Virus record (IMG/VR): IMGVR_UViG_2534681992_000020
Reading direction: 5' to 3' (one strand)
DNA length: 5,276 bases
Source of the DNA: a virus
Taxonomy: Duplodnaviria; Heunggongvirae; Uroviricota; Caudoviricetes
Position 1 is the stretch's first letter. Each line of letters begins with the position of its first letter. The position numbers and the translations under genes are program-made. Below are positions 1 through 5,276 of this stretch, one piece after another. The notes under the pieces are model-generated. The model did no database searches and was not told the origin of the DNA. It saw nothing but the letters and a program-made list of their open reading frames with translations.

Positions 1-47
1 ACCCAGTTCTGAGCCTCAAGACGATCCTGAATGTAATAAGCGTTCAT
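1..47 (-). CDS. N-terminal 15 codons of a leftward gene that runs off the left edge of the window; product unknown
   Basis: Minus-strand ATG at 45-47, preceded by AGGAG (complement of 55-59) with a 7-nt spacer. The frame is open to position 1 and reads [15 protein letters not shown]. It lies in the same orientation as the upstream 68-aa gene, consistent with a leftward early operon. Confidence 0.35.
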
Positions 48-122
48 GGCTGAACTCCTGAAAATGGCTGTGAAAATATCGCCCGCGAAATGCCAGGCTG
101 ATTAGGTAAACAGGAAAGGGGA

Positions 123-329
123 TTAGTGATTCAGGCCGTTGCCGCGTCCGTCGAGAAAAACTTCCACGAGCAAATCACGGGTATAAGTGCGCTCGATGCC
201 GCGATGCAGATAAAGCCGTCCGCGTAAATTAGCTGATGCAGTCCAGGTTCCATCTTTGTGTTTGACCAGCATTCCTGGCATGACCGCACCGCGATTAACG
301 GTCTGCGTTCCGTAATGTTGATGAACCAT
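123..329 (-). CDS. hypothetical small protein (68 aa), early-left operon
   Basis: ATG at 327-329 (minus) with a strong AGGAG (complement of 335-339) 5 nt upstream. The translation has a balanced, protein-like composition, unlike the overlapping alternative-frame ORF 131-364. I do not recognise the family. Confidence 0.5.
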   Translation of the reverse strand: MVHQHYGTQTVNRGAVMPGMLVKHKDGTWTASANLRGRLYLHRGIERTYTRDLLVEVFLDGRGNGLNH

Positions 330-596
330 AAAAACTCCTGCCCGTAAGCTGGGCTGCTGAACAAATAAGGGGTTGCGCAGTATCTGGCGGTGGATGGCCG
401 CCGGTTGTCATAACTAAGTCGCCTCGTTGAAGCAACTGAGGTATGAAGTGTTGAGTTGATTTCAGCTGGTCACACCGACGTTCACGCGTCCGTTTCACCC
501 CTCGCACTCCCCGGAGCCTGCTGAAATTCAAGCTGCGGATCTAAGCGGTCATCGCAACGGTGAATCAGGTGGTTGCCGTATCGTTGTGTTGTTGCG

Positions 597-670
597 ACAT
601 GGTGATAATAGCCATTGCTATTGGTGATATTAATACTTATTGCTATTGTTAGATGTGTTTTGCTATTAAA
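597..670 (-). promoter_or_regulatory. OL-like operator cluster with a putative leftward promoter (pL-like)
   Basis: Three copies of TTGCTATT at 615-622, 640-647 and 660-667. The first lies in a perfect inverted repeat AATAGC-catt-GCTATT (607-622); the second is an imperfect version, AATACT-tatt-GCTATT (632-647). On the minus strand there is a -10 TATTAT (complement of 605-610) and a weak -35 TTAATA (complement of 628-633) with a 17-nt spacer. The same GCTATTAT element forms the -10 of the rightward promoter at 2585-2592. Confidence 0.45.
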
Positions 671-771
671 TGTTTGATGGCAAAAAGAATTAATTTTGTG
701 ACTTGAATCGCATAGCGATAACTGAAGCGAGGTCGTGGTGGTTTTTTGAACGGTTTGTGTGATGAGGGGAG

Positions 772-801
772 GCAAAAGAAAACCCGGCACGGTGGCCGGG
801 T
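772..801 (-). terminator. intrinsic (rho-independent) terminator ending the repressor operon
   Basis: Seven-bp stem ACCCGGC (782-788) paired with GCCGGGT (795-801) around a 6-nt loop. On the minus-strand RNA it is followed by UUUUCUUUUG (complement of 772-781). It begins 5 nt past the stop (806-808) of the 806-1747 gene. The plus-strand side also has a moderately U-rich tail (UAUCUUUAUU), so it may act in both directions. Confidence 0.75.
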
Positions 802-805
802 ATCT

Positions 806-1747
806 TTATTCGAATGGAAGATCTATTTGCCTTTGAGGATTCAACTGTTTTTTTACATGCTCAATTTCGAATATGGTTTTTATGGCATCTCCGATCATAT
901 ATTGAGTTACTTTTAAATCTACAAGTAACATATCACCTTTAGAAAAATTTAAGGTGTTGTTATCAATATCGCTGATGAATTTCTGGTCTTTTATTTCAGC
1001 CAAAAAGCTACTGGCACCATCAGAAAACCGCCACCGGCTTCCTTCATTGAAGGAAATATTTTTAATTTGAAGGGCTTTCTCTACTGTGTACTCTGAAATT
1101 ATTGATTCTGCTGGTAGATTGACTTTGAAATAATGTGCTTCTTGCTTGTTGATCGTCATGAATGTCAAACCATCATCGACAGTAGAGGCAAAGCTGTCAA
1201 TGCCTTCCTGCTCTAATGGCTTACTTATAACTTCTTGTAATGAAGAGCGAAGTTTAATATTTTTATAAAGTTCAATAACGTTACTGTCGTAGATCTCGCT
1301 TTCGTCATCAACAAAGACTTCGATGTTGCTATCAGGCAAATTGTGTAATTTTTTTATTTTCCTTGGACCTATCCATTTTATCAGTTGAATTAGGCCTTTG
1401 CATATTTTTTCTTTAGAACCAGGACAGAGTCCAATAAAAGCAATCAAATTCGCAGCGGCTGTTGCTGAATCGCCGGATAAAAAATCAACAGCCTGTTTGA
1501 ACCAAGATGTAGATGAGGCAACCAGATCTATTCCAAATGAGCCAGCTTTAAATGATGCATTGACTTTTACAGAAACAACAGTCTTGTTTCCGTAGAGAGT
1601 TTTACCGGCTTCCTCTAATGCATCTGATAGTGATAGAAGGGCAGGAGCAAGGTCTCGCACGTTCATTTCATGCGTTTCCAGTGCCGGACCGTCGTATACT
1701 ATCCTGAACTTCATATCATTGGTTTCCGAATTGTTGCCCGCATCCAT
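806..1747 (-). CDS. hypothetical protein (313 aa from ATG 1747; 317 aa if GTG 1759 is used) in the rexAB-equivalent position downstream of the repressor; candidate exclusion/defence gene, function unknown
   Basis: Long uninterrupted minus-strand ORF. The first ATG (1745-1747) follows a GGTGA Shine-Dalgarno-like element by about 9 nt. The gene is visibly AT-rich compared with flanking phage genes. It sits between the repressor stop (1821) and the terminator (782-801), in the same orientation as the repressor and with no terminator in the 1760-1820 spacer. I see no P-loop or other motif I can name. Confidence 0.8.
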   Translation of the reverse strand: MDAGNNSETNDMKFRIVYDGPALETHEMNVRDLAPALLSLSDALEEAGKTLYGNKTVVSVKVNASFKAGSFGIDLVASSTSWFKQAVDFLSGDSATAAANLIAFIGLCPGSKEKICKGLIQLIKWIGPRKIKKLHNLPDSNIEVFVDDESEIYDSNVIELYKNIKLRSSLQEVISKPLEQEGIDSFASTVDDGLTFMTINKQEAHYFKVNLPAESIISEYTVEKALQIKNISFNEGSRWRFSDGASSFLAEIKDQKFISDIDNNTLNFSKGDMLLVDLKVTQYMIGDAIKTIFEIEHVKKQLNPQRQIDLPFE

Positions 1748-1820
1748 TATGGCATTCACCTGATCACATATACAGTTAATTTACGATATTGTCTTAAATC
1801 TTAAAACTTCTATTGTATGG

Positions 1821-2513
1821 CTACCCATGCTTCCTATACGTCTGCGGCATGCTCCCAATAACCTTACCGAAGATGAACACCCGGTTCATCTCGTCTTTCT
1901 CGATCGGGTCCCAAGGTGAGTAGCTCTTGTTATCAGAGATAACCAGCAGCTTATCCTTCATCATTTGCAGACGCTTTACATGGGCTGTGTCGTCGTACAG
2001 AAACGCATAGATACCATCACCGTCGAAAGATTTAACCGTGATATCAACGAACAGCAGATCACCTGGTTCGATCGTTCCTGACATGCTGTCACCACGCACG
2101 TTAATGATGCGGATATTTTCCGCCTTCCTGCCATCGAACATGTGACGAGCATCGTCAAACGAGTACTCAACCGAGCGTAGAACTTCTACAAACTCACGAT
2201 TGATGACACCCGGCCCGGCACTGACTTCTATATCAAGAACGTCAATCTTGAAGTATTTGGAATGGTTGACAGCAGGCTTCCCTGATTGTTGACCGTCATT
2301 TCTCATCGGGCCTATGCCTGATGAGAGCCACTCAGTTCGAACACCCAATGCATTAGCTATTTCAACAATTTTTGTTGAGCCGCGCGCGTTGCCGCTTGTC
2401 AGTCTCCAGATTGTGGGTTGAGCTACGCCAGACGCCTTTGCAAGAGCGCCTTGAGACATTCCAGATTGTTCCATCGCTAGGTTTAAGCAATCAGCAAGAG
2501 TTTCTTTTTTCAT
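1821..2513 (-). CDS. cI: CI-type prophage repressor (N-terminal XRE-family HTH, C-terminal LexA-like S24 autopeptidase)
   Basis: HTH segment SQGALAKASGVAQPTIWRLTSG. Probable Ala-Gly autocleavage site in EVSAGPG. Catalytic serine motif GDSM and lysine motif VKRL, spaced as in LexA and lambda CI. I place the start at ATG 2511-2513 (MKKETL...) because a minus-strand promoter (-35 TTGACC, complement of 2544-2549; -10 TATAAA, complement of 2523-2528) would start transcription at or just before that ATG, giving a leaderless message as for lambda PRM-cI. The ORF track's 2549 start is a TTG with no ribosome-binding site. Confidence 0.9.
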   Translation of the reverse strand: MKKETLADCLNLAMEQSGMSQGALAKASGVAQPTIWRLTSGNARGSTKIVEIANALGVRTEWLSSGIGPMRNDGQQSGKPAVNHSKYFKIDVLDIEVSAGPGVINREFVEVLRSVEYSFDDARHMFDGRKAENIRIINVRGDSMSGTIEPGDLLFVDITVKSFDGDGIYAFLYDDTAHVKRLQMMKDKLLVISDNKSYSPWDPIEKDEMNRVFIFGKVIGSMPQTYRKHG

Positions 2514-2522
2514 AAGTTTTAA

Positions 2523-2607
2523 TTTATACGCTTGCGTATTGATGGTCAAAACACGTTTTGCTATTGATTGGGTTAATACGCATTGCTATTATCTATTCAT
2601 TGCAATA
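2523..2607. promoter_or_regulatory. OR-like operator cluster with divergent promoters (PRM-like leftward, PR-like rightward)
   Basis: Repeats related to the OL sites: ATACGC-tt-GCGTAT palindrome (2526-2539) over the PRM -10; AACACG-tttt-GCTATT (2550-2565) abutting the PRM -35 and overlapping the PR -35; AATACG-catt-GCTATT (2575-2590) overlapping the PR -10; ATTGCAAT palindrome (2599-2606) near the PR +1. PR has -35 TTGATT (2564-2569), a 17-nt spacer and -10 TATTAT (2587-2592). The 2550-2565 site is centred about 43 bp upstream of the predicted PRM start, the position from which lambda CI at OR2 activates PRM. Confidence 0.6.
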
Positions 2608-2623
2608 CCAATAGGAATTGATA

Positions 2624-2851
2624 ATGACAAATCAAACCATTCAACTCGCAATCAGTATTACAGGTAGTCAAAAACGACTGGCAGATCTATGCGGTGTAGC
2701 CCAACCCACTGTTTGGCGTTGGCTACACGGTGGCGGAATTGATGCCCGCTATGTAATGAAAATTGTCTCAGCCACTGGTGGAAAGATTAAACCAGCAGAT
2801 ATTCGTCCCGACCTCGCACCATTGTTTAACGCGAGTAATTCTGCCGCCTAA
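2624..2851 (+). CDS. Cro-like transcriptional regulator of the YdaS family
   Basis: First gene rightward of the PR-like promoter. ATG at 2624 with a GGAA ribosome-binding site (2614-2617); the ORF track's 2618 start is a TTG. The sequence GSQKRLADLCGVAQPTVWRW...ATGGKI...IRPDL matches, from memory, the conserved pattern of YdaS-type Cro proteins (DUF1019). Confidence 0.8.
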   Translation: MTNQTIQLAISITGSQKRLADLCGVAQPTVWRWLHGGGIDARYVMKIVSATGGKIKPADIRPDLAPLFNASNSAA

Positions 2852-2875
2852 ACTGCGGCGTTAACTGATAAGGCA

Positions 2876-3421
2876 ATGACTATGCAATCACTTACATACC
2901 AACAGACTAGCGGATTTAGCCCGACTGCGGTGATAAATCGTTCTCAAACAAAACAGGCGCCAGGCCACGAAAAAATCCGTGATGCCGTTCGCGCCTGGTC
3001 GGCTGCAGATAATCAGGATGTTGTTGCCGCACTCATTGTGAATGAGTATCGGGAGCAGGGCGGCGGCACCATCGATTTCCCTGATGATGTCAGCCGTGCA
3101 CGCCAGAAGCTGTTCCGCTTCCTCGATAACAAATTCGATTCTGAAAAATACCGAAATAACGTGCGTGAACTGACCCCGGCAATTCTGGCGGTACTACCGC
3201 TGGAATATCGCGGCCACCTGGTTGGGCAGGATAGCTTCATGGCTCGGCTGGCTGAAATGGAAAAGGAACTCAGTGAGGCAAAACAGGCTGTCATTCTCAA
3301 CGCACCACGCCACCAGAAACTGAAGGAGATGAGTGAAGGCATTGTGTCGATGTTTCGTGTGGACCCGGATCTGGCTGGTCCACTGATGGCGATGGTCACC
3401 ACCATGCTGGGGGCAATATGA
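2876..3421 (+). CDS. YdaT-family protein (functional analogue of CII in YdaS/YdaT-type immunity regions)
   Basis: Occupies the cII position immediately after cro. The motifs NEYREQGGGTIDFP and LTPAILAVLPLEYRGHL match, from memory, the conserved core of E. coli YdaT-family proteins. Start is ATG 2876 or 2882; the second has better spacing to the AGG at 2872-2873. Its stop overlaps an in-frame ATG of the next reading frame (ATGA at 3418-3421). Confidence 0.7.
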   Translation: MTMQSLTYQQTSGFSPTAVINRSQTKQAPGHEKIRDAVRAWSAADNQDVVAALIVNEYREQGGGTIDFPDDVSRARQKLFRFLDNKFDSEKYRNNVRELTPAILAVLPLEYRGHLVGQDSFMARLAEMEKELSEAKQAVILNAPRHQKLKEMSEGIVSMFRVDPDLAGPLMAMVTTMLGAI

Positions 3422-3507
3422 CAGGTTCAGAAATGGCGAAAGCCGGTCTGCGCGAACAGAACCGACTTTCAGGTGCAAATCGTAACACACTCATTGCGGG
3501 AGGAATT

Positions 3508-4437
3508 ATGGCAAACACTGCTGAGATATTCAATTTTCCAGTGCCGGATGTGGCACAAAAGGAGCCGCGCGTGGCAGATCTCGATGATGGTTATACGCGC
3601 ATTGCAAATGAGTTGCTGGAAGCTGTAATGCTGGCCGGATTAAAACAGCACCAGCTTCTGGTCTTCCTGGCTGTCATGCGCAAAACATATGGCTTTAATA
3701 AAAAACTGGATTGGGTGAGCAACGAGCAACTTTCCGAATTGACCGGGATATTGCCGCACAAGTGTTCTGCTGCAAAAAGCGTTCTGGTAAAGCGTGGGAT
3801 TCTTATTCAGAGCGGGCGGAATATCGGCATCAATAATGTGGTCAGTGAATGGTCAACATTACCCGAATCAGGTAAGAAAAATAAAGTTTACCTGAAAGAG
3901 GTAAATTTACCTGAGTCAGGTAAGAAAAGTTTACCCAAATCAGGTAAAGGCACTTACCCGAATCAGGTAAACACAAAAGACAAACTAACAAAAGACAATA
4001 TAAAACCTTTTTCGTCCGAGAATTCTGACGAATCCTCTGACCAGCCAGAAAATGCCCTTCCTGTGGTGAAACCGGATGCTGCGATTCAGAGCGGCAGCAA
4101 GTGGGGGACAGCAGAAGACCTGACCGCCGCAGAGTGGATGTTTGACATGGTGAAGACCATCGCGCCATCAGCCAGAAAACCGAATTTTGCAGGGTGGGCT
4201 AACGATATTCGCCTGATGCGTGAACGTGACGGACGTAACCACCGCGACATGTGCGTGCTGTTCCGCTGGGCATGCCAGGACAACTTCTGGTCCGGTAACG
4301 TGCTAAGTCCGGCCAAACTCCGCGACAAGTGGACCCAACTCGAAATCAACCGTAACAAGCAACAGGCTGGCGTGACAGCCGGAAAACCAAAACTCGACCT
4401 GACGAACACTGACTGGATTTACGGGGTGGAGCTATGA
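3508..4437 (+). CDS. O: replication initiation protein O (lambda O family) with a divergent iteron-binding N-terminal domain and a lambda-like C-terminal domain
   Basis: ATG 3508 has a GGAGG (3498-3502) 5 nt upstream. The N-terminus MANTAEIFNF...VADLDDGYTRIANELLEA aligns with lambda O (MTNTAKILNF...VADLDDGYARLSNMLLEA, recalled). The C-terminal ~110 aa (SKWGTAEDLTAAEWMFDMVKTIAPSARKPNFAGWANDIRLMRERDGRNHRDMCVLFRW...WIYGVEL) look almost identical to lambda O as I recall it. Iterons lie inside the gene. The ORF track's 3418 start adds 30 residues with no counterpart in lambda O. Confidence 0.9.
   Translation: MANTAEIFNFPVPDVAQKEPRVADLDDGYTRIANELLEAVMLAGLKQHQLLVFLAVMRKTYGFNKKLDWVSNEQLSELTGILPHKCSAAKSVLVKRGILIQSGRNIGINNVVSEWSTLPESGKKNKVYLKEVNLPESGKKSLPKSGKGTYPNQVNTKDKLTKDNIKPFSSENSDESSDQPENALPVVKPDAAIQSGSKWGTAEDLTAAEWMFDMVKTIAPSARKPNFAGWANDIRLMRERDGRNHRDMCVLFRWACQDNFWSGNVLSPAKLRDKWTQLEINRNKQQAGVTAGKPKLDLTNTDWIYGVEL
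3859..3970. repeat. origin of replication: five iterons (TTACC-N7-GGTAA) followed by an A-rich tract (3971-4013)
   Basis: Iterons at 3859-3876 (ttacccgaatcaggtaag), 3888-3904 (ttacctgaaagaggtaa), 3907-3924 (ttacctgagtcaggtaag), 3931-3949 (ttacccaaatcaggtaaag) and 3954-3970 (ttacccgaatcaggtaa). Each has perfect inverted arms TTACC/GGTAA. They are followed by acacaaaagacaaactaacaaaagacaatataaaacc. This matches lambda ori architecture (iterons plus AT-rich region inside O) but the iteron sequence differs from lambda. Confidence 0.8.
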
Positions 4438-5087
4438 AAAACATCGCCGCACAGATGGTTAATTTTGACCGTGAGCAGATGCGCCGGATCGCCAATAACA
4501 TGCCGGAACAGTACGACGAAAAGCCGCAGGTACAGCAGGTAGCGCAGATTATCAATGGTGTGTTCAGCCAGTTACTGGCAACTTTCCCGGCGAGCCTGGC
4601 TAACCGGGACCAGAATGAACTGAACGAAATCCGCCGCCAGTGGGTTCTGGCTTTCCGGGAAAACGGGATCACCACGATGGAACAGGTTAACGCAGGAATG
4701 CGCGTAGCCCGTCGGCAGAATCGACCATTTCTGCCATCACCCGGGCAGTTTGTTGCATGGTGCCGGGAAGAAGCATCCGTTATCGCCGGACTGCCAAACG
4801 TCAGCGAGCTGGTTGATATGGTTTACGAGTATTGCCGGAAGCGAGGCCTGTATCCGGATGCGGAGTCTTATCCGTGGAAATCAAACGCGCACTACTGGCT
4901 GGTTACCAACCTGTATCAGAACATGCGGGCCAATGCGCTTACTGATGCGGAATTACGCCGTAAGGCCGCAGATGAGCTTGTCCATATGACTGCGAGAATT
5001 AACCGTGGTGAGGCGATCCCTGAACCAGTAAAACAACTTCCTGTCATGGGCGGTAGACCTCTAAATCGTGGTAAGCGTACAGCCTGA
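4434..5087 (+). CDS. P: replication protein P (lambda P, DnaB helicase loader), C-terminally truncated and fused to IS-derived codons
   Basis: The start overlaps the O stop (ATGA at 4434-4437), as in lambda. Residues 1 to about 212 (MKNIAAQMVNFDREQMRRIANNMPEQYDEKPQVQQ...PVMGGRPLNR) match lambda P as I recall it. After codon 212 the sequence departs from lambda (expected AQALAKIAEIKAKFGLKGASV) and reads GKRTA-stop, encoded by the inserted element starting at about 5071. Confidence 0.9.
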   Translation: MKNIAAQMVNFDREQMRRIANNMPEQYDEKPQVQQVAQIINGVFSQLLATFPASLANRDQNELNEIRRQWVLAFRENGITTMEQVNAGMRVARRQNRPFLPSPGQFVAWCREEASVIAGLPNVSELVDMVYEYCRKRGLYPDAESYPWKSNAHYWLVTNLYQNMRANALTDAELRRKAADELVHMTARINRGEAIPEPVKQLPVMGGRPLNRGKRTA

Positions 5088-5276
5088 ACCGTCTGGTCAG
5101 AATCTGACGAATTAGACAAAGTGGTGTCCACCAAATAAGTAGTGGGAACCAAAGTGTCAGATATGCAGAAAAATGTGACTCCCGGCAGGCGAAAAGGCTG
5201 CCCTAATTATCCTCCCGAATTTAAACAGCAGCTCGTTGCTGCCTCCTGTGAACCCGGGATATCCATCTCAAAACTT
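5071..5276 (+). mobile_element. left end of an insertion sequence (probably IS66-family-like) inserted into the 3' end of P; continues beyond the window
   Basis: Lambda-like P sequence stops abruptly after ...aaatcgtg (5070). The new sequence begins GTAAGCG (5071-5077), the terminal motif I recall for IS66-family inverted repeats. A transposase-type ORF starts 92 bp inside. The right end and any target-site duplication are outside the window. Confidence 0.55.
5163..5276 (+). CDS. transposase accessory protein OrfA/TnpA (HTH), N-terminal 38 codons; partial at the right edge
   Basis: ATG at 5163; open frame to the end of the window reading MQKNVTPGRRKGCPNYPPEFKQQLVAASCEPGISISKL. The Y-x2-EFK-x2-V...S-x-S pattern is typical of the small HTH first ORF of IS3/IS66-type elements. 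It is absent from the ORF track only because it has no stop inside the window. Confidence 0.6.
   Translation, partial: MQKNVTPGRRKGCPNYPPEFKQQLVAASCEPGISISKL

Follow-up and report, generated by a model that had tools for sequence, protein, structure and literature searches.

Five TTACC-N7-GGTAA iterons within gene O of a lambdoid prophage mark a probable lambda-plan replication origin

Introduction

Iterons within gene O, together with a specificity that resides in the O N-terminus, have been textbook material since 1979–84. The locus studied here raises the question of whether a set of inverted repeats in the middle of an O gene is an origin of this kind and, if it is, to which specificity type it belongs. 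The gene lies in a 5,276-bp stretch of DNA from a Caudoviricetes virus (IMG/VR record IMGVR_UViG_2534681992_000020), and we refer to this whole stretch as the window. An earlier note, made from the sequence alone, had described the repeats as a five-iteron TTACC-N7-GGTAA origin embedded in O and distinct from that of lambda. From sequence comparison we find that 3859–4013 is very probably a replication origin on the lambda plan, belonging to a lambdoid prophage and embedded in the initiator gene O.

Five exact palindromic repeats lie in the central part of gene O

In a motif scan of the 5276-bp window, we found that TTACCNNNNNNNGGTAA is present as five exact copies (Table 1) and at no position outside these five sites, whereas 200 dinucleotide-preserving shuffles of the window gave a mean of 0.00 matches. 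The same five-copy family was recovered by a repeat search, with start-to-start spacings of 29, 19, 24 and 23, in agreement with the period of about 19–29 bp given in the earlier note. The five sites occupy nt 352–463 of gene O, the central part of the initiator gene. Its N-terminal domain is Pfam Phage_rep_O (PF04492; E=5e-34, 117 bits against a cutoff of 28.7), and the protein matches phrog_277, 'replication initiation O-like' (E=9e-163), so the location claimed for the array, inside O, is correct.

Overall, this O is 66% identical to lambda O. The cluster of the exact protein carries only the name 'replication protein [Escherichia coli]' and no classical phage name. We place the start at the ATG at 3508: a GGAGG motif precedes it, and it lines up with Met1 in lambda O and in every divergent homologue. 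An alternative in-frame ATG upstream, at 3418, yields a 339-aa O and is used in some annotations, and databases hold both lengths.

In the AlphaFold2 model, O residues 29–115 have pLDDT values of 77–93 and the topology H-H-strand-H-H-hairpin. When we searched with this fold (Foldseek), the best PDB matches were all winged-helix DNA-binding domains (CRP/FNR, MarR, CodY, DnaD) at a weak E of ~0.01, and a sequence search of the PDB with O found no solved relative. On this model, the winged-helix N-terminal domain of O is presumed to be the iteron-binding domain.

Table 1. Features of the origin region and its surroundings (window coordinates).
Feature	Coordinates	Strand	Basis	Remarks
Gene O, replication initiator, 309 aa	3508..4437	+	Pfam, phrog_277, lambda O identity	
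Coding region of N-terminal winged-helix domain of O, residues 29–115	3592..3852	+	AlphaFold2 model	
Candidate specificity segment and putative recognition helix, O residues 82–95, LPHKCSAAKSVLVK	3751..3792	+	alignment and model	
Iteron 1, TTACCCGAATCAGGTAA	3859..3875	.	exact motif match	accessory upstream site; codon frame 0
Iteron 2, TTACCTGAAAGAGGTAA	3888..3904	.	exact motif match	aligns with lambda iteron 1; codon frame 2; first of conserved four-iteron core
Iteron 3, TTACCTGAGTCAGGTAA	3907..3923	.	exact motif match	aligns with lambda iteron 2; codon frame 0
Iteron 4, TTACCCAAATCAGGTAA	3931..3947	.	exact motif match	aligns with lambda iteron 3; codon frame 0
Iteron 5, TTACCCGAATCAGGTAA	3954..3970	.	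exact motif match	aligns with lambda iteron 4; codon frame 2
A-rich tract, presumed DNA-unwinding element (ACACAAAAGACAAACTAACAAAAGACAATATAAAACC...)	3971..4013	.	composition and lambda homology	
Lambda-type C-terminal domain of O	4015..4437	+	near-identical to lambda O residues 160–299	
Gene P, helicase loader, truncated	4434..5087	+	Pfam PF06992 Phage_lambda_P, E=4e-62; BLASTP against lambda P	
End of IS66-like insertion sequence interrupting P	5071..5276	+	sequence identity	outside the origin

The array follows the lambda plan with arms of its own

In a MAFFT alignment, the annotated lambda ori iterons 1–4 (39034–39118) align column by column with repeats 2–5 of the window. Both arrays lie in the middle of gene O and consist of palindromes with the same 5-N7-5 geometry, and the core spacing is 19-24-23 in the window and 20-24-23 in lambda. 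In contrast, the sites at these aligned positions read TTACC-N7-GGTAA in the window and TCCCT-N7-AGGGA in lambda, a difference that the earlier note had pointed out. Because the arms differ (TTACC/GGTAA against TCCCT/AGGGA) and the O N-terminal domains are only ~47% identical, we rejected the lambda ori specificity type for this locus.

Megablast identity to lambda-type phages begins at ~3971, directly after repeat 5. The C-terminal half of O, which in lambda is the P-interacting half, is ~97–99% identical to lambda O, and residues 1–212 of P are 97% identical to lambda P; the lambda-like character proposed for the O C-terminus therefore holds and extends to P. The A-rich tract has ~30% GC, the minimum of the O gene, with an AT skew of up to +0.71, and contains a 15-bp direct repeat, ACAAAAGACAAnnTA. 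By alignment it is homologous to the lambda AT-rich ori segment, which confirms that the iterons give way to an A-rich tract. The features of the ori-lambda family found at this locus are a central iteron array, positional homology, an adjoining AT-rich region, a Phage_rep_O initiator and a downstream Phage_lambda_P partner. An Rfam scan of the window found no RNA family and no oop-like match.

The window also differs from lambda in a YdaT-like cII-type neighbour and in one extra iteron on the upstream side. Comparison across homologues indicates that the conserved core consists of four repeats (2–5) and that this iteron 1 is an accessory to it: iteron 1 has no lambda counterpart at its position in the alignment, it is missing in homologues of 61–75% N-terminal identity, and the Klebsiella clade has only a degenerate form of it (GGTAC). 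Among close relatives (97–100% identity to the N-terminal domain), 75 of 80 have all five sites intact, iteron 1 included. The best analogy is found in the Stx phages 933W and P27, whose six iterons comprise a lambda-type four-site core and upstream extras; these extra iterons bind O weakly in vitro, yet they are required in vivo (PMC7466680). The Stx iterons are lambda-like (ATCCCTC...), however, there are two extra sites as compared to one in the window, and the N-terminus is ~47% identical.

Gene P is interrupted in this copy

Gene P adjoins O downstream and overlaps the O stop codon. After residue 212, P continues with 5 foreign residues and a stop, and the final 21 residues of lambda P are absent. 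Homology to intact prophages stops at 5070, and the remainder of the window matches, at 99.5% identity, multicopy E. coli elements that carry the annotation 'IS66-like element accessory protein TnpA'. An IS66-like insertion thus accounts for the 21 residues missing from the C-terminus of P. The fragment 3500–5070, which the earlier note proposed for plasmid replication, carries P without its last 21 codons.

Since P is truncated, this copy may be replication-defective, and the origin may not fire without P in trans. The array could then be a genuine ancestral origin that is an inactive relic here, kept by recent descent in a defective prophage. As many E. coli prophages are cryptic, we consider this quite possible, if somewhat short of probable; against it, neither O nor any of the five iterons is damaged, all are identical to those of functional-looking relatives, and the module is found with an intact P in 16 isolated phages, among them 4A7 (NC_049946), 1W, 3W, Perceval and the PhiR series. 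Such a loss would bear on the activity of this copy only, and not on the nature of the element, which we continue to read as a lambda-plan origin.

The iteron arms are conserved at the level of DNA

We compared the array with that of five divergent homologues chosen by protein similarity alone, without use of the motif, and found that TTACC-N7-GGTAA is kept at 85, 85, 75, 72 and 62% N-terminal identity (Klebsiella, Salmonella, two Xenorhabdus and Providencia). In this set, the iteron arms are identical at 237 of 240 nt (98.75%), wobble positions included, and the iteron spacing is the same to the base pair in every genus, as is the frame pattern. In contrast, identity at N-terminal codon position 3 is only 38–58%, and synonymous sites elsewhere are near saturation. 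These data support selection on the iteron arms at the DNA level.

The array DNA also encodes a linker of O, which the model predicts to be disordered, and it could be argued that what is repeated is an LPxSGK linker peptide, selected at the protein level, and that the DNA repeats only reflect it and have no DNA-binding role. Repeats 1, 3 and 4 indeed encode LPESGKK, LPESGKK and LPKSGKG, and for these three the earlier description of the repeats as a translated LPESGKK/LPKSGK linker holds; it fails for repeats 2 and 5, which have the same DNA arms in another frame and encode VYLKEVN and TYPNQVN. Because the repeats are read in different frames, the repetition is one of DNA and not of a uniform peptide, and a peptide repeat cannot explain the array. 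Each unit is also an inverted repeat, a symmetry that repetition of a peptide would not require, the conservation of the arms extends to their wobble positions, and the experimentally defined iterons of lambda lie at the aligned positions. We therefore regard a purely protein-level origin of the repeats as highly improbable and retain the reading as iterons. Copy-number variants of the array have 3, 4, 5, 7 or 9 sites, and where the spacing of a variant was read out, the change is a 24- or 48-bp unit, so that O stays in frame.

The O N-terminal domain and the iterons change together

We found 7 iteron types in 18 O genes, all at the same gene position. The repeats of the window are kept down to ~61–62% N-terminal identity, with P, DnaC or DnaB as the partner, whereas at 56–62% N-terminal identity there are clades with TTAGC-N7-GCTAA or TTTACC-N5-GGTAAA in their place. 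The N-terminus and array of the window type are fused to the lambda O C-terminal domain with P (69 loci), to another O C-terminal domain with a DnaC-type loader (21 loci), to the P22 O C-terminal domain with DnaB (1 locus) and to an mEp043-type O C-terminal domain (1 locus). Whatever the C-terminal type, lambda and 5/5 divergent same-type homologues have the first ~25 nt of the A-rich tract (ACACAAAAGACA..ACAAAAGA) after the last iteron. The comparison supports what the earlier note had suspected, namely that the O N-terminal domain and the iterons co-vary, and they do so independently of the C-terminal domain and the helicase partner.

In an alignment of 15 O N-termini, residues 82–95 are the only short segment that switches with the iteron type. 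The segment reads LPHKCSAAK here, HHTH(C/V)xxAK in the TTAGC type, xxTKCSTAK in the P22 type and PVKRCNEAK in lambda. In the model, residues 83–95 form a helix, and the type-specific residues are found at the start of this putative recognition helix. Alignment and model point to residues 82–95 as a candidate segment for setting iteron specificity.

Palindromic 17-mers are typical of operators, and the nearby immunity genes of the window encode HTH proteins, with a Pfam YdaT-type domain in the cII-type neighbour. We give very little credence, however, to the idea that the palindromes are operators of another regulator (CII/YdaT-like, a repressor or a host factor) and not O sites. From genus to genus the upstream regulators vary (a YdaT-type cII in the window, the Phage_CII type in Salmonella, and unrelated small ORFs in Xenorhabdus and Providencia), yet the array stays with the O N-terminal domain. 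With each change of O N-terminal clade the array changes too, and there is no copy of the motif in the cI–cro intergenic region of the window. We therefore keep to the reading of the palindromes as sites for O.

Comparison with other origin types

Among clades with a different iteron, the two nearest are the TTAGC-type SEN34 (N-terminus ~62% identical) and P22, whose gene 18 N-terminus is ~59% identical. The P22 origin consists of four ~20-bp repeats within gene 18 (PMC8022706). Its four sites have the same half-site, TTTACC/GGTAAA, and the same gene position, with a spacing of 20-24-23; however, the spacer is 2 bp shorter, giving TTTACC-N5-GGTAAA (17 bp) as compared to TTTACC-N7-GGTAAA (19 bp) in the window. 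The start of the putative recognition helix also differs (xxTKCSTAK in P22, LPHKCSAAK in the window), and the helicase partner is a DnaB-type helicase (gene 12) in P22 and P in the window. The P22 gene 18 ori type was rejected because the spacer is N7 and not N5 in 5/5 sites and in every same-type relative listed.

The phi80-type origin (gene 15/14), here represented by HK225, resembles the window in having iterons embedded in an O-like gene and a ~181-aa protein as the cII neighbour (in the window, with a Pfam YdaT-type domain). Its iterons, CGGGAA-N5-TTCCCG with 21-bp spacing, differ from those of the window, and on this ground the phi80 type was rejected; the HK225 N-terminus is ~39% identical, and HK225 has its own C-terminal domain and P analogue. 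An identity with Rac/oriJ of E. coli K-12 was rejected as well, as Rac ydaU is annotated as a DUF1376 protein and not as an O-type initiator. Rac ydaS and ydaT resemble the cro/cII-like genes of the window.

The origin of phage 82, reportedly described by Grosschedl and Hobom in 1979 and by Moore et al. in 1979 and 1981, is said to combine its own iterons and O N-terminus with a lambda-compatible O C-terminus. This architecture is exactly that of the window, and the module may belong to the type of the classical phage 82. Among the sequence matches obtained, none was a phage record named 82. A full-text literature search for TTACCCGAATCAGGTAA and GAATCAGGTAA returned nothing relevant, and the literature on the phage 82, phi80 and P22 origins yielded general statements only.

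The module is widespread and confined to O genes in viral contigs

The module is present in ~42% of complete E. coli genomes, a single genome having as many as 3 copies, and its only annotation is 'replication protein'; every match listed for the segment in E. coli genomes falls under a gene of that name. In viral contigs, 120 of 120 arrays of at least three sites are embedded in O, 117 with a detectable O N-terminus and 3 cut by contig ends. Occurrence at many unrelated locations, which the earlier note had named as the mark of a generic repeat, is thus not what we observe. The class reaches Klebsiella, Salmonella, Xenorhabdus and Providencia. When species-representative genomes were scanned for the motif, at least 2 enterobacterial loci were among the matches listed, which were mostly a 22-bp repeat of Bacteroidales; swamped by this repeat, the scan gives no taxonomic census.

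It is exceedingly unlikely that the array has no function as an origin and is instead a dispersed repeat of a generic, REP/MITE-like kind or a scar left by recombination at a mosaic junction. It does lie exactly at the border of the variable N-terminal and lambda-identical C-terminal parts of O, and a degenerate search met many TTACC...GGTAA arrays in Bacteroidales genomes. These Bacteroidales arrays, however, are strict 22-bp tandem TTACCA-N5-TGGTAA units of different geometry with no O gene nearby. The arrays in viral contigs all lie in O, the E. coli matches listed fall under 'replication protein' genes, and the spacing is the same across genera.

Discussion

From sequence and by analogy with lambda, we infer that O would bind the array, that the DNA would unwind beside it and that the origin would fire there. 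Dimers of the O N-terminal winged-helix domain would bind the 17–19 bp TTACC-N7-GGTAA palindromes, and the four-site core (repeats 2–5) with its one accessory upstream site would form a nucleoprotein complex. This complex would, as in lambda, destabilise the adjoining A-rich tract, while the lambda-type O C-terminal domain would recruit P, and P would deliver the host DnaB. The N-terminal domain and the iterons act together as a single specificity cassette, which recombines at the conserved A-rich tract with various C-terminal/helicase-recruitment modules. In the accessible literature we found no biochemical or genetic evidence for the TTACC-N7-GGTAA iteron type.

As the principle is a textbook one, the finding adds no new concept; the origin is real but ordinary, a very common specificity variant of a known system. 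We tentatively suggest that TTACC-N7-GGTAA is an experimentally uncharacterised ori-specificity class and yet probably more common in E. coli prophages than any other lambda-type replication module. Relative to the P22 class, only the spacer between the identical half-sites differs, being 2 bp longer; relative to the TTAGC class, one base per half-site differs. If the suggestion is true, TTACC-N7, TTAGC-N7 and TTTACC-N5 would be a natural series for specificity changes in a winged-helix initiator, and this series, with its matching changes at residues 82–90, would be useful for studies of initiator–DNA recognition. The finding also gives a precise origin annotation for the module in thousands of E. 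coli genomes that now label it only 'replication protein'. Finally, co-resident prophages of this class would be predicted to cross-fire or to be incompatible: they could activate or titrate each other's origins, which would be relevant to prophage induction and to the escape replication of neighbouring virulence or defence genes.

Five palindromic iterons and an A-rich tract within gene O

We found exactly five TTACC-N7-GGTAA palindromes in the window and none in 200 dinucleotide-preserving shuffles of it. Repeat detection recovered the identical five-copy family, with spacings of 29, 19, 24 and 23 bp, as well as a 15-bp direct repeat, ACAAAAGACAAnnTA, inside the A-rich tract 3' of the iterons, which is the AT-richest part of gene O (~30% GC, AT skew up to +0.71). 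The motif scan, shuffles, repeat detection and GC profile confirm the array of five repeats plus A-rich tract that had been proposed from the sequence alone. The earlier note had also read the repeats as a translated LPxSGK linker of O; this holds for three of the five, repeats 1, 3 and 4 in frame 0 (LPESGKK, LPESGKK and LPKSGKG, respectively), and fails for repeats 2 and 5, which lie in frame 2 (VYLKEVN and TYPNQVN, respectively). Because two reading frames are used across the repeats, the DNA palindrome, not the peptide, is the conserved entity.

The iteron-bearing ORF has a Pfam Phage_rep_O domain (E=5e-34). As judged from sequence, its start is likely the ATG at 3508 (309 aa), which is preceded by a GGAGG motif and lines up with Met1 in lambda O and in every divergent homologue; an alternative start at 3418, where ATGA overlaps the stop of the cII-like gene, gives a 339-aa form, and both forms are deposited in databases. 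A sigma-70-like promoter (TTGAAT-17-CATAAT, upstream TG) spans the O start codon and is directed leftwards into the cII-like gene, a position equivalent to that of the lambda pO/oop antisense promoter; Rfam gave no match, nor was a clear terminator seen.

Features of the window and array loci in other genomes
Feature	Position	Strand	Remarks
317-aa ORF	806-1759	-	~35% GC, surroundings ~50%
S24/LexA-type repressor, YdaS-type cro-like gene, YdaT-type cII-like gene			upstream of O (Pfam)
Sigma-70-like promoter	3505-3533	-
Gene O	3508-4437	+
Iterons 1-5 (starts)	3859, 3888, 3907, 3931, 3954		within O
A-rich tract	3971-4013		within O
Gene P	4434-5087	+	Phage_lambda_P (Pfam), downstream of O
IS66-like element end (tnpA accessory protein)	5071-5276		junction ~5070, within 3' end of P
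9-copy array, Kluyvera sichuanensis (L062)	2537-2744
Bacteroidales array (L026)	6061-6340
Bacteroidales array (L043)	7567-7790
Bacteroidales array (L032)	7721-7890

The proposed origin is positionally homologous to that of lambda

Over its full length, window O shares 66% identity with lambda O: the N-terminal ~117 residues and the linker match poorly, and the two proteins are almost identical beyond residue ~170. Megablast DNA identity with lambda-type phages begins at ~3971, immediately 3' of repeat 5. In a three-way alignment, lambda's four annotated "ori iteron" features fall on window repeats 2-5 and its AT-rich region pairs with the A-rich tract. The 5-N7-5 geometry is common to both, and spacing is 19-24-23 in the window (repeats 2-5) and 20-24-23 in lambda; however, the arms differ (TTACC/GGTAA versus TCCCT/AGGGA in lambda), and repeat 1 has no counterpart in lambda. 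The expectation that distinct iterons accompany a lambda-like O C-terminus was thus borne out. Phage 82 (described 1979-81) reportedly combines a lambda-compatible O C-terminus with an O N-terminus and iterons that are not those of lambda. The window has the same architecture, and its origin may be of the phage 82 type.

Iteron type follows the O N-terminal domain

When we compared the palindromic repeats at the corresponding position in 18 O genes, we found that iteron type tracks the N-terminal clade, whichever C-terminal domain or replication partner goes with it; the N-terminal domain and iterons therefore co-vary, as the earlier note had supposed. Among 120 viral contigs, the window-type N-terminus and array are combined with the lambda C-terminal domain and P at 69 loci, with a different C-terminal domain and DnaC at 21, with the P22 C-terminal domain and DnaB at 1, and with an mEp043-type C-terminal domain at 1.

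Iteron type and partner by O N-terminal identity to the window (over all 117 query residues)
O gene	Identity	Iterons	Partner
Window	100%	TTACC-N7-GGTAA ×5	P
Klebsiella phage GZ7	85%	TTACC-N7-GGTAA ×5	DnaC-type loader
Salmonella	85%	TTACC-N7-GGTAA ×7	O truncated, P-like gene downstream
Two Xenorhabdus species	72%, 68%	TTACC-N7-GGTAA ×4	DnaC/IstB-type
Providencia rettgeri	61%	TTACC-N7-GGTAA ×4	DnaB
SEN34, a Salmonella prophage	62%	TTAGC-N7-GCTAA	P (SEN34)
Yersinia phage, phage 2851	50%, 42%	TTAGC-N7-GCTAA	DnaB
P22-like, E. cloacae, P. stuartii, Proteus	56-59%	TTTACC-N5-GGTAAA	DnaB
mEpX1	51%	TGTCTC-N7-GAGACA	DnaC
Lambda	47%	TCCCT-N7-AGGGA	P
HK225 (phi80 type)	39%	CGGGAA-N5-TTCCCG	phi80 gene 14
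mEp043	38%	GTCAC-N7-GTGAC	toprim protein

In SEN34 (locus L004), the first ~31 residues of O are nearly identical to window O (3508-3600), despite which the helix-turn-helix segment and iterons are of the TTAGC class, indicating a mosaic junction within the N-terminal domain itself.

We modelled O residues 1-171 with AlphaFold2 (34-sequence alignment). Residues 29-115 form a confidently predicted core (pLDDT 77-93; helix, helix, strand, helix, helix, beta-hairpin), and pLDDT is <50 over residues 120-171, for which the iterons and A-rich tract code. The best PDB fold matches were all winged-helix DNA-binding domains (CRP/FNR, MarR, CodY, DnaD), at an E of only ~0.01; no sequence relative was found in PDB. 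Across 15 aligned N-termini, one short segment, residues 82-90, switches with iteron type: LPHKCSAAK in the window type, HHTH(C/V)xxAK in the TTAGC type, xxTKCSTAK in the P22 type and PVKRCNEAK in lambda. It forms the beginning of helix 83-95 in the model, and we infer that this is the recognition helix.

The iterons are constrained at the DNA level

A first conservation count was set aside as circular because the motif itself had been used to collect its loci. We repeated the count in five divergent homologues picked by protein similarity alone (N-terminal amino-acid identity 62-85% in a separate global alignment). In these, only 38-58% of codon position 3 is identical across the N-terminal domain, the iteron arms are identical at 237/240 nt (98.75%) and the central spacers are 86% identical; the 19-24-23 spacing and frame pattern (2, 0, 0, 2) are invariant, and a tract ACACAAAAGACA..ACAAAAGA lies 3' of the last iteron in all five and in lambda. 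All five sites are exact in 75/80 close relatives retrieved by the N-terminal protein alone.

O-linked arrays from the motif scans have 3 (1 locus), 4 (8), 5 (107), 7 (1) or 9 (2) copies. The 9-copy Kluyvera array triplicates a 48-bp unit of iterons 1 and 2, 7-copy arrays repeat a 24-bp unit, and one 4-copy variant is missing a 24-bp unit (variant loci L062, L176, L332 in Salmonella LR134140, and L175). Each of these changes is a multiple of 24 bp, so O stays in frame; binding-site number and O linker length change together. The four-site core is all that homologues with 61-75% identity possess, and the Klebsiella clade has a degenerate iteron 1, so iteron 1 is an accessory site. Its nearest parallel lies in Stx phages, whose additional iterons are needed in vivo although they are weakly bound by O in vitro (PMC7466680).

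Occurrence and genomic context

The O N-terminus adjoins 117/120 viral-contig arrays of at least three consecutive sites, and the remaining three are the same origin severed by a contig end. The N-terminus-plus-array segment is present at ≥95% identity in ~2,284/5,426 complete E. coli genomes (1-3 copies each), where each of the matches listed falls under a "replication protein" gene. Thus, rather than recurring at many unrelated places, as a generic repeat might, viral-contig arrays are O-linked. In a scan of species-representative genomes, arrays from Bacteroidales (including Prevotella) predominate among the matches listed. These are strict 22-bp tandem TTACCA-N5-TGGTAA arrays with a variable centre and 3-13 copies, at many loci (L012-L131), several per genome, including Prevotella and Parabacteroides; no O gene was found near them. 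We rejected them as the same element: the degenerate arm pattern is all that they have in common with the enterobacterial element, on which they have no bearing.

Window positions 1-5070 match a prophage in E. coli 2013C-3264 at 100% identity, and the same O type is found in sixteen isolated phages, including 4A7, Lambda_4C10, 1W, 3W, Perceval, the PhiR series and Turner. The otherwise identical 2013C-3264 prophage has no contiguous match past 5070. Window P is 97% identical to lambda P across 212 residues and lacks the last 21, the IS66-like insertion having swapped these codons for GKRTA-stop; the element is multicopy in E. coli. Because P is truncated, autonomous firing of this origin copy is doubtful, and the 3500-5070 fragment suggested earlier is a poor choice for a replication assay.

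The 317-aa ORF immediately follows the cI-like repressor gene, at lambda's rexAB position. It has no Pfam match; its matches are to PDC-S42, a phage-defence candidate of PADLOC (E=3.4e-86), and to phrog_3243 (function unknown), and "LAPAL motif-containing putative phage structural protein" is the PGAP name of its relatives. The ORF is probably a moron that the prophage carries for defence or exclusion.

Proposed mechanism and significance

By analogy with lambda biochemistry (Tsurimoto & Matsubara 1981, cited in PMC8022706; also PMC7466680), O dimers would bind each palindrome and build a higher-order complex, the A-rich tract would melt, and the lambda-type O C-terminus would bring in P with DnaB. 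In lambda, P22 and L, the iterons within the initiator gene differ from phage to phage, and the initiator proteins vary by origin specificity (PMC8022706); the concept of iterons within the initiator gene is already established. We found no description of the TTACC-N7-GGTAA iteron sequence in the searchable literature, and databases name window-type O only "replication protein" (90%-identity cluster, 7,825 members). This origin type is notable mainly because it is very prevalent and because it forms a clean specificity series with the TTAGC-N7 and P22 N5 classes.
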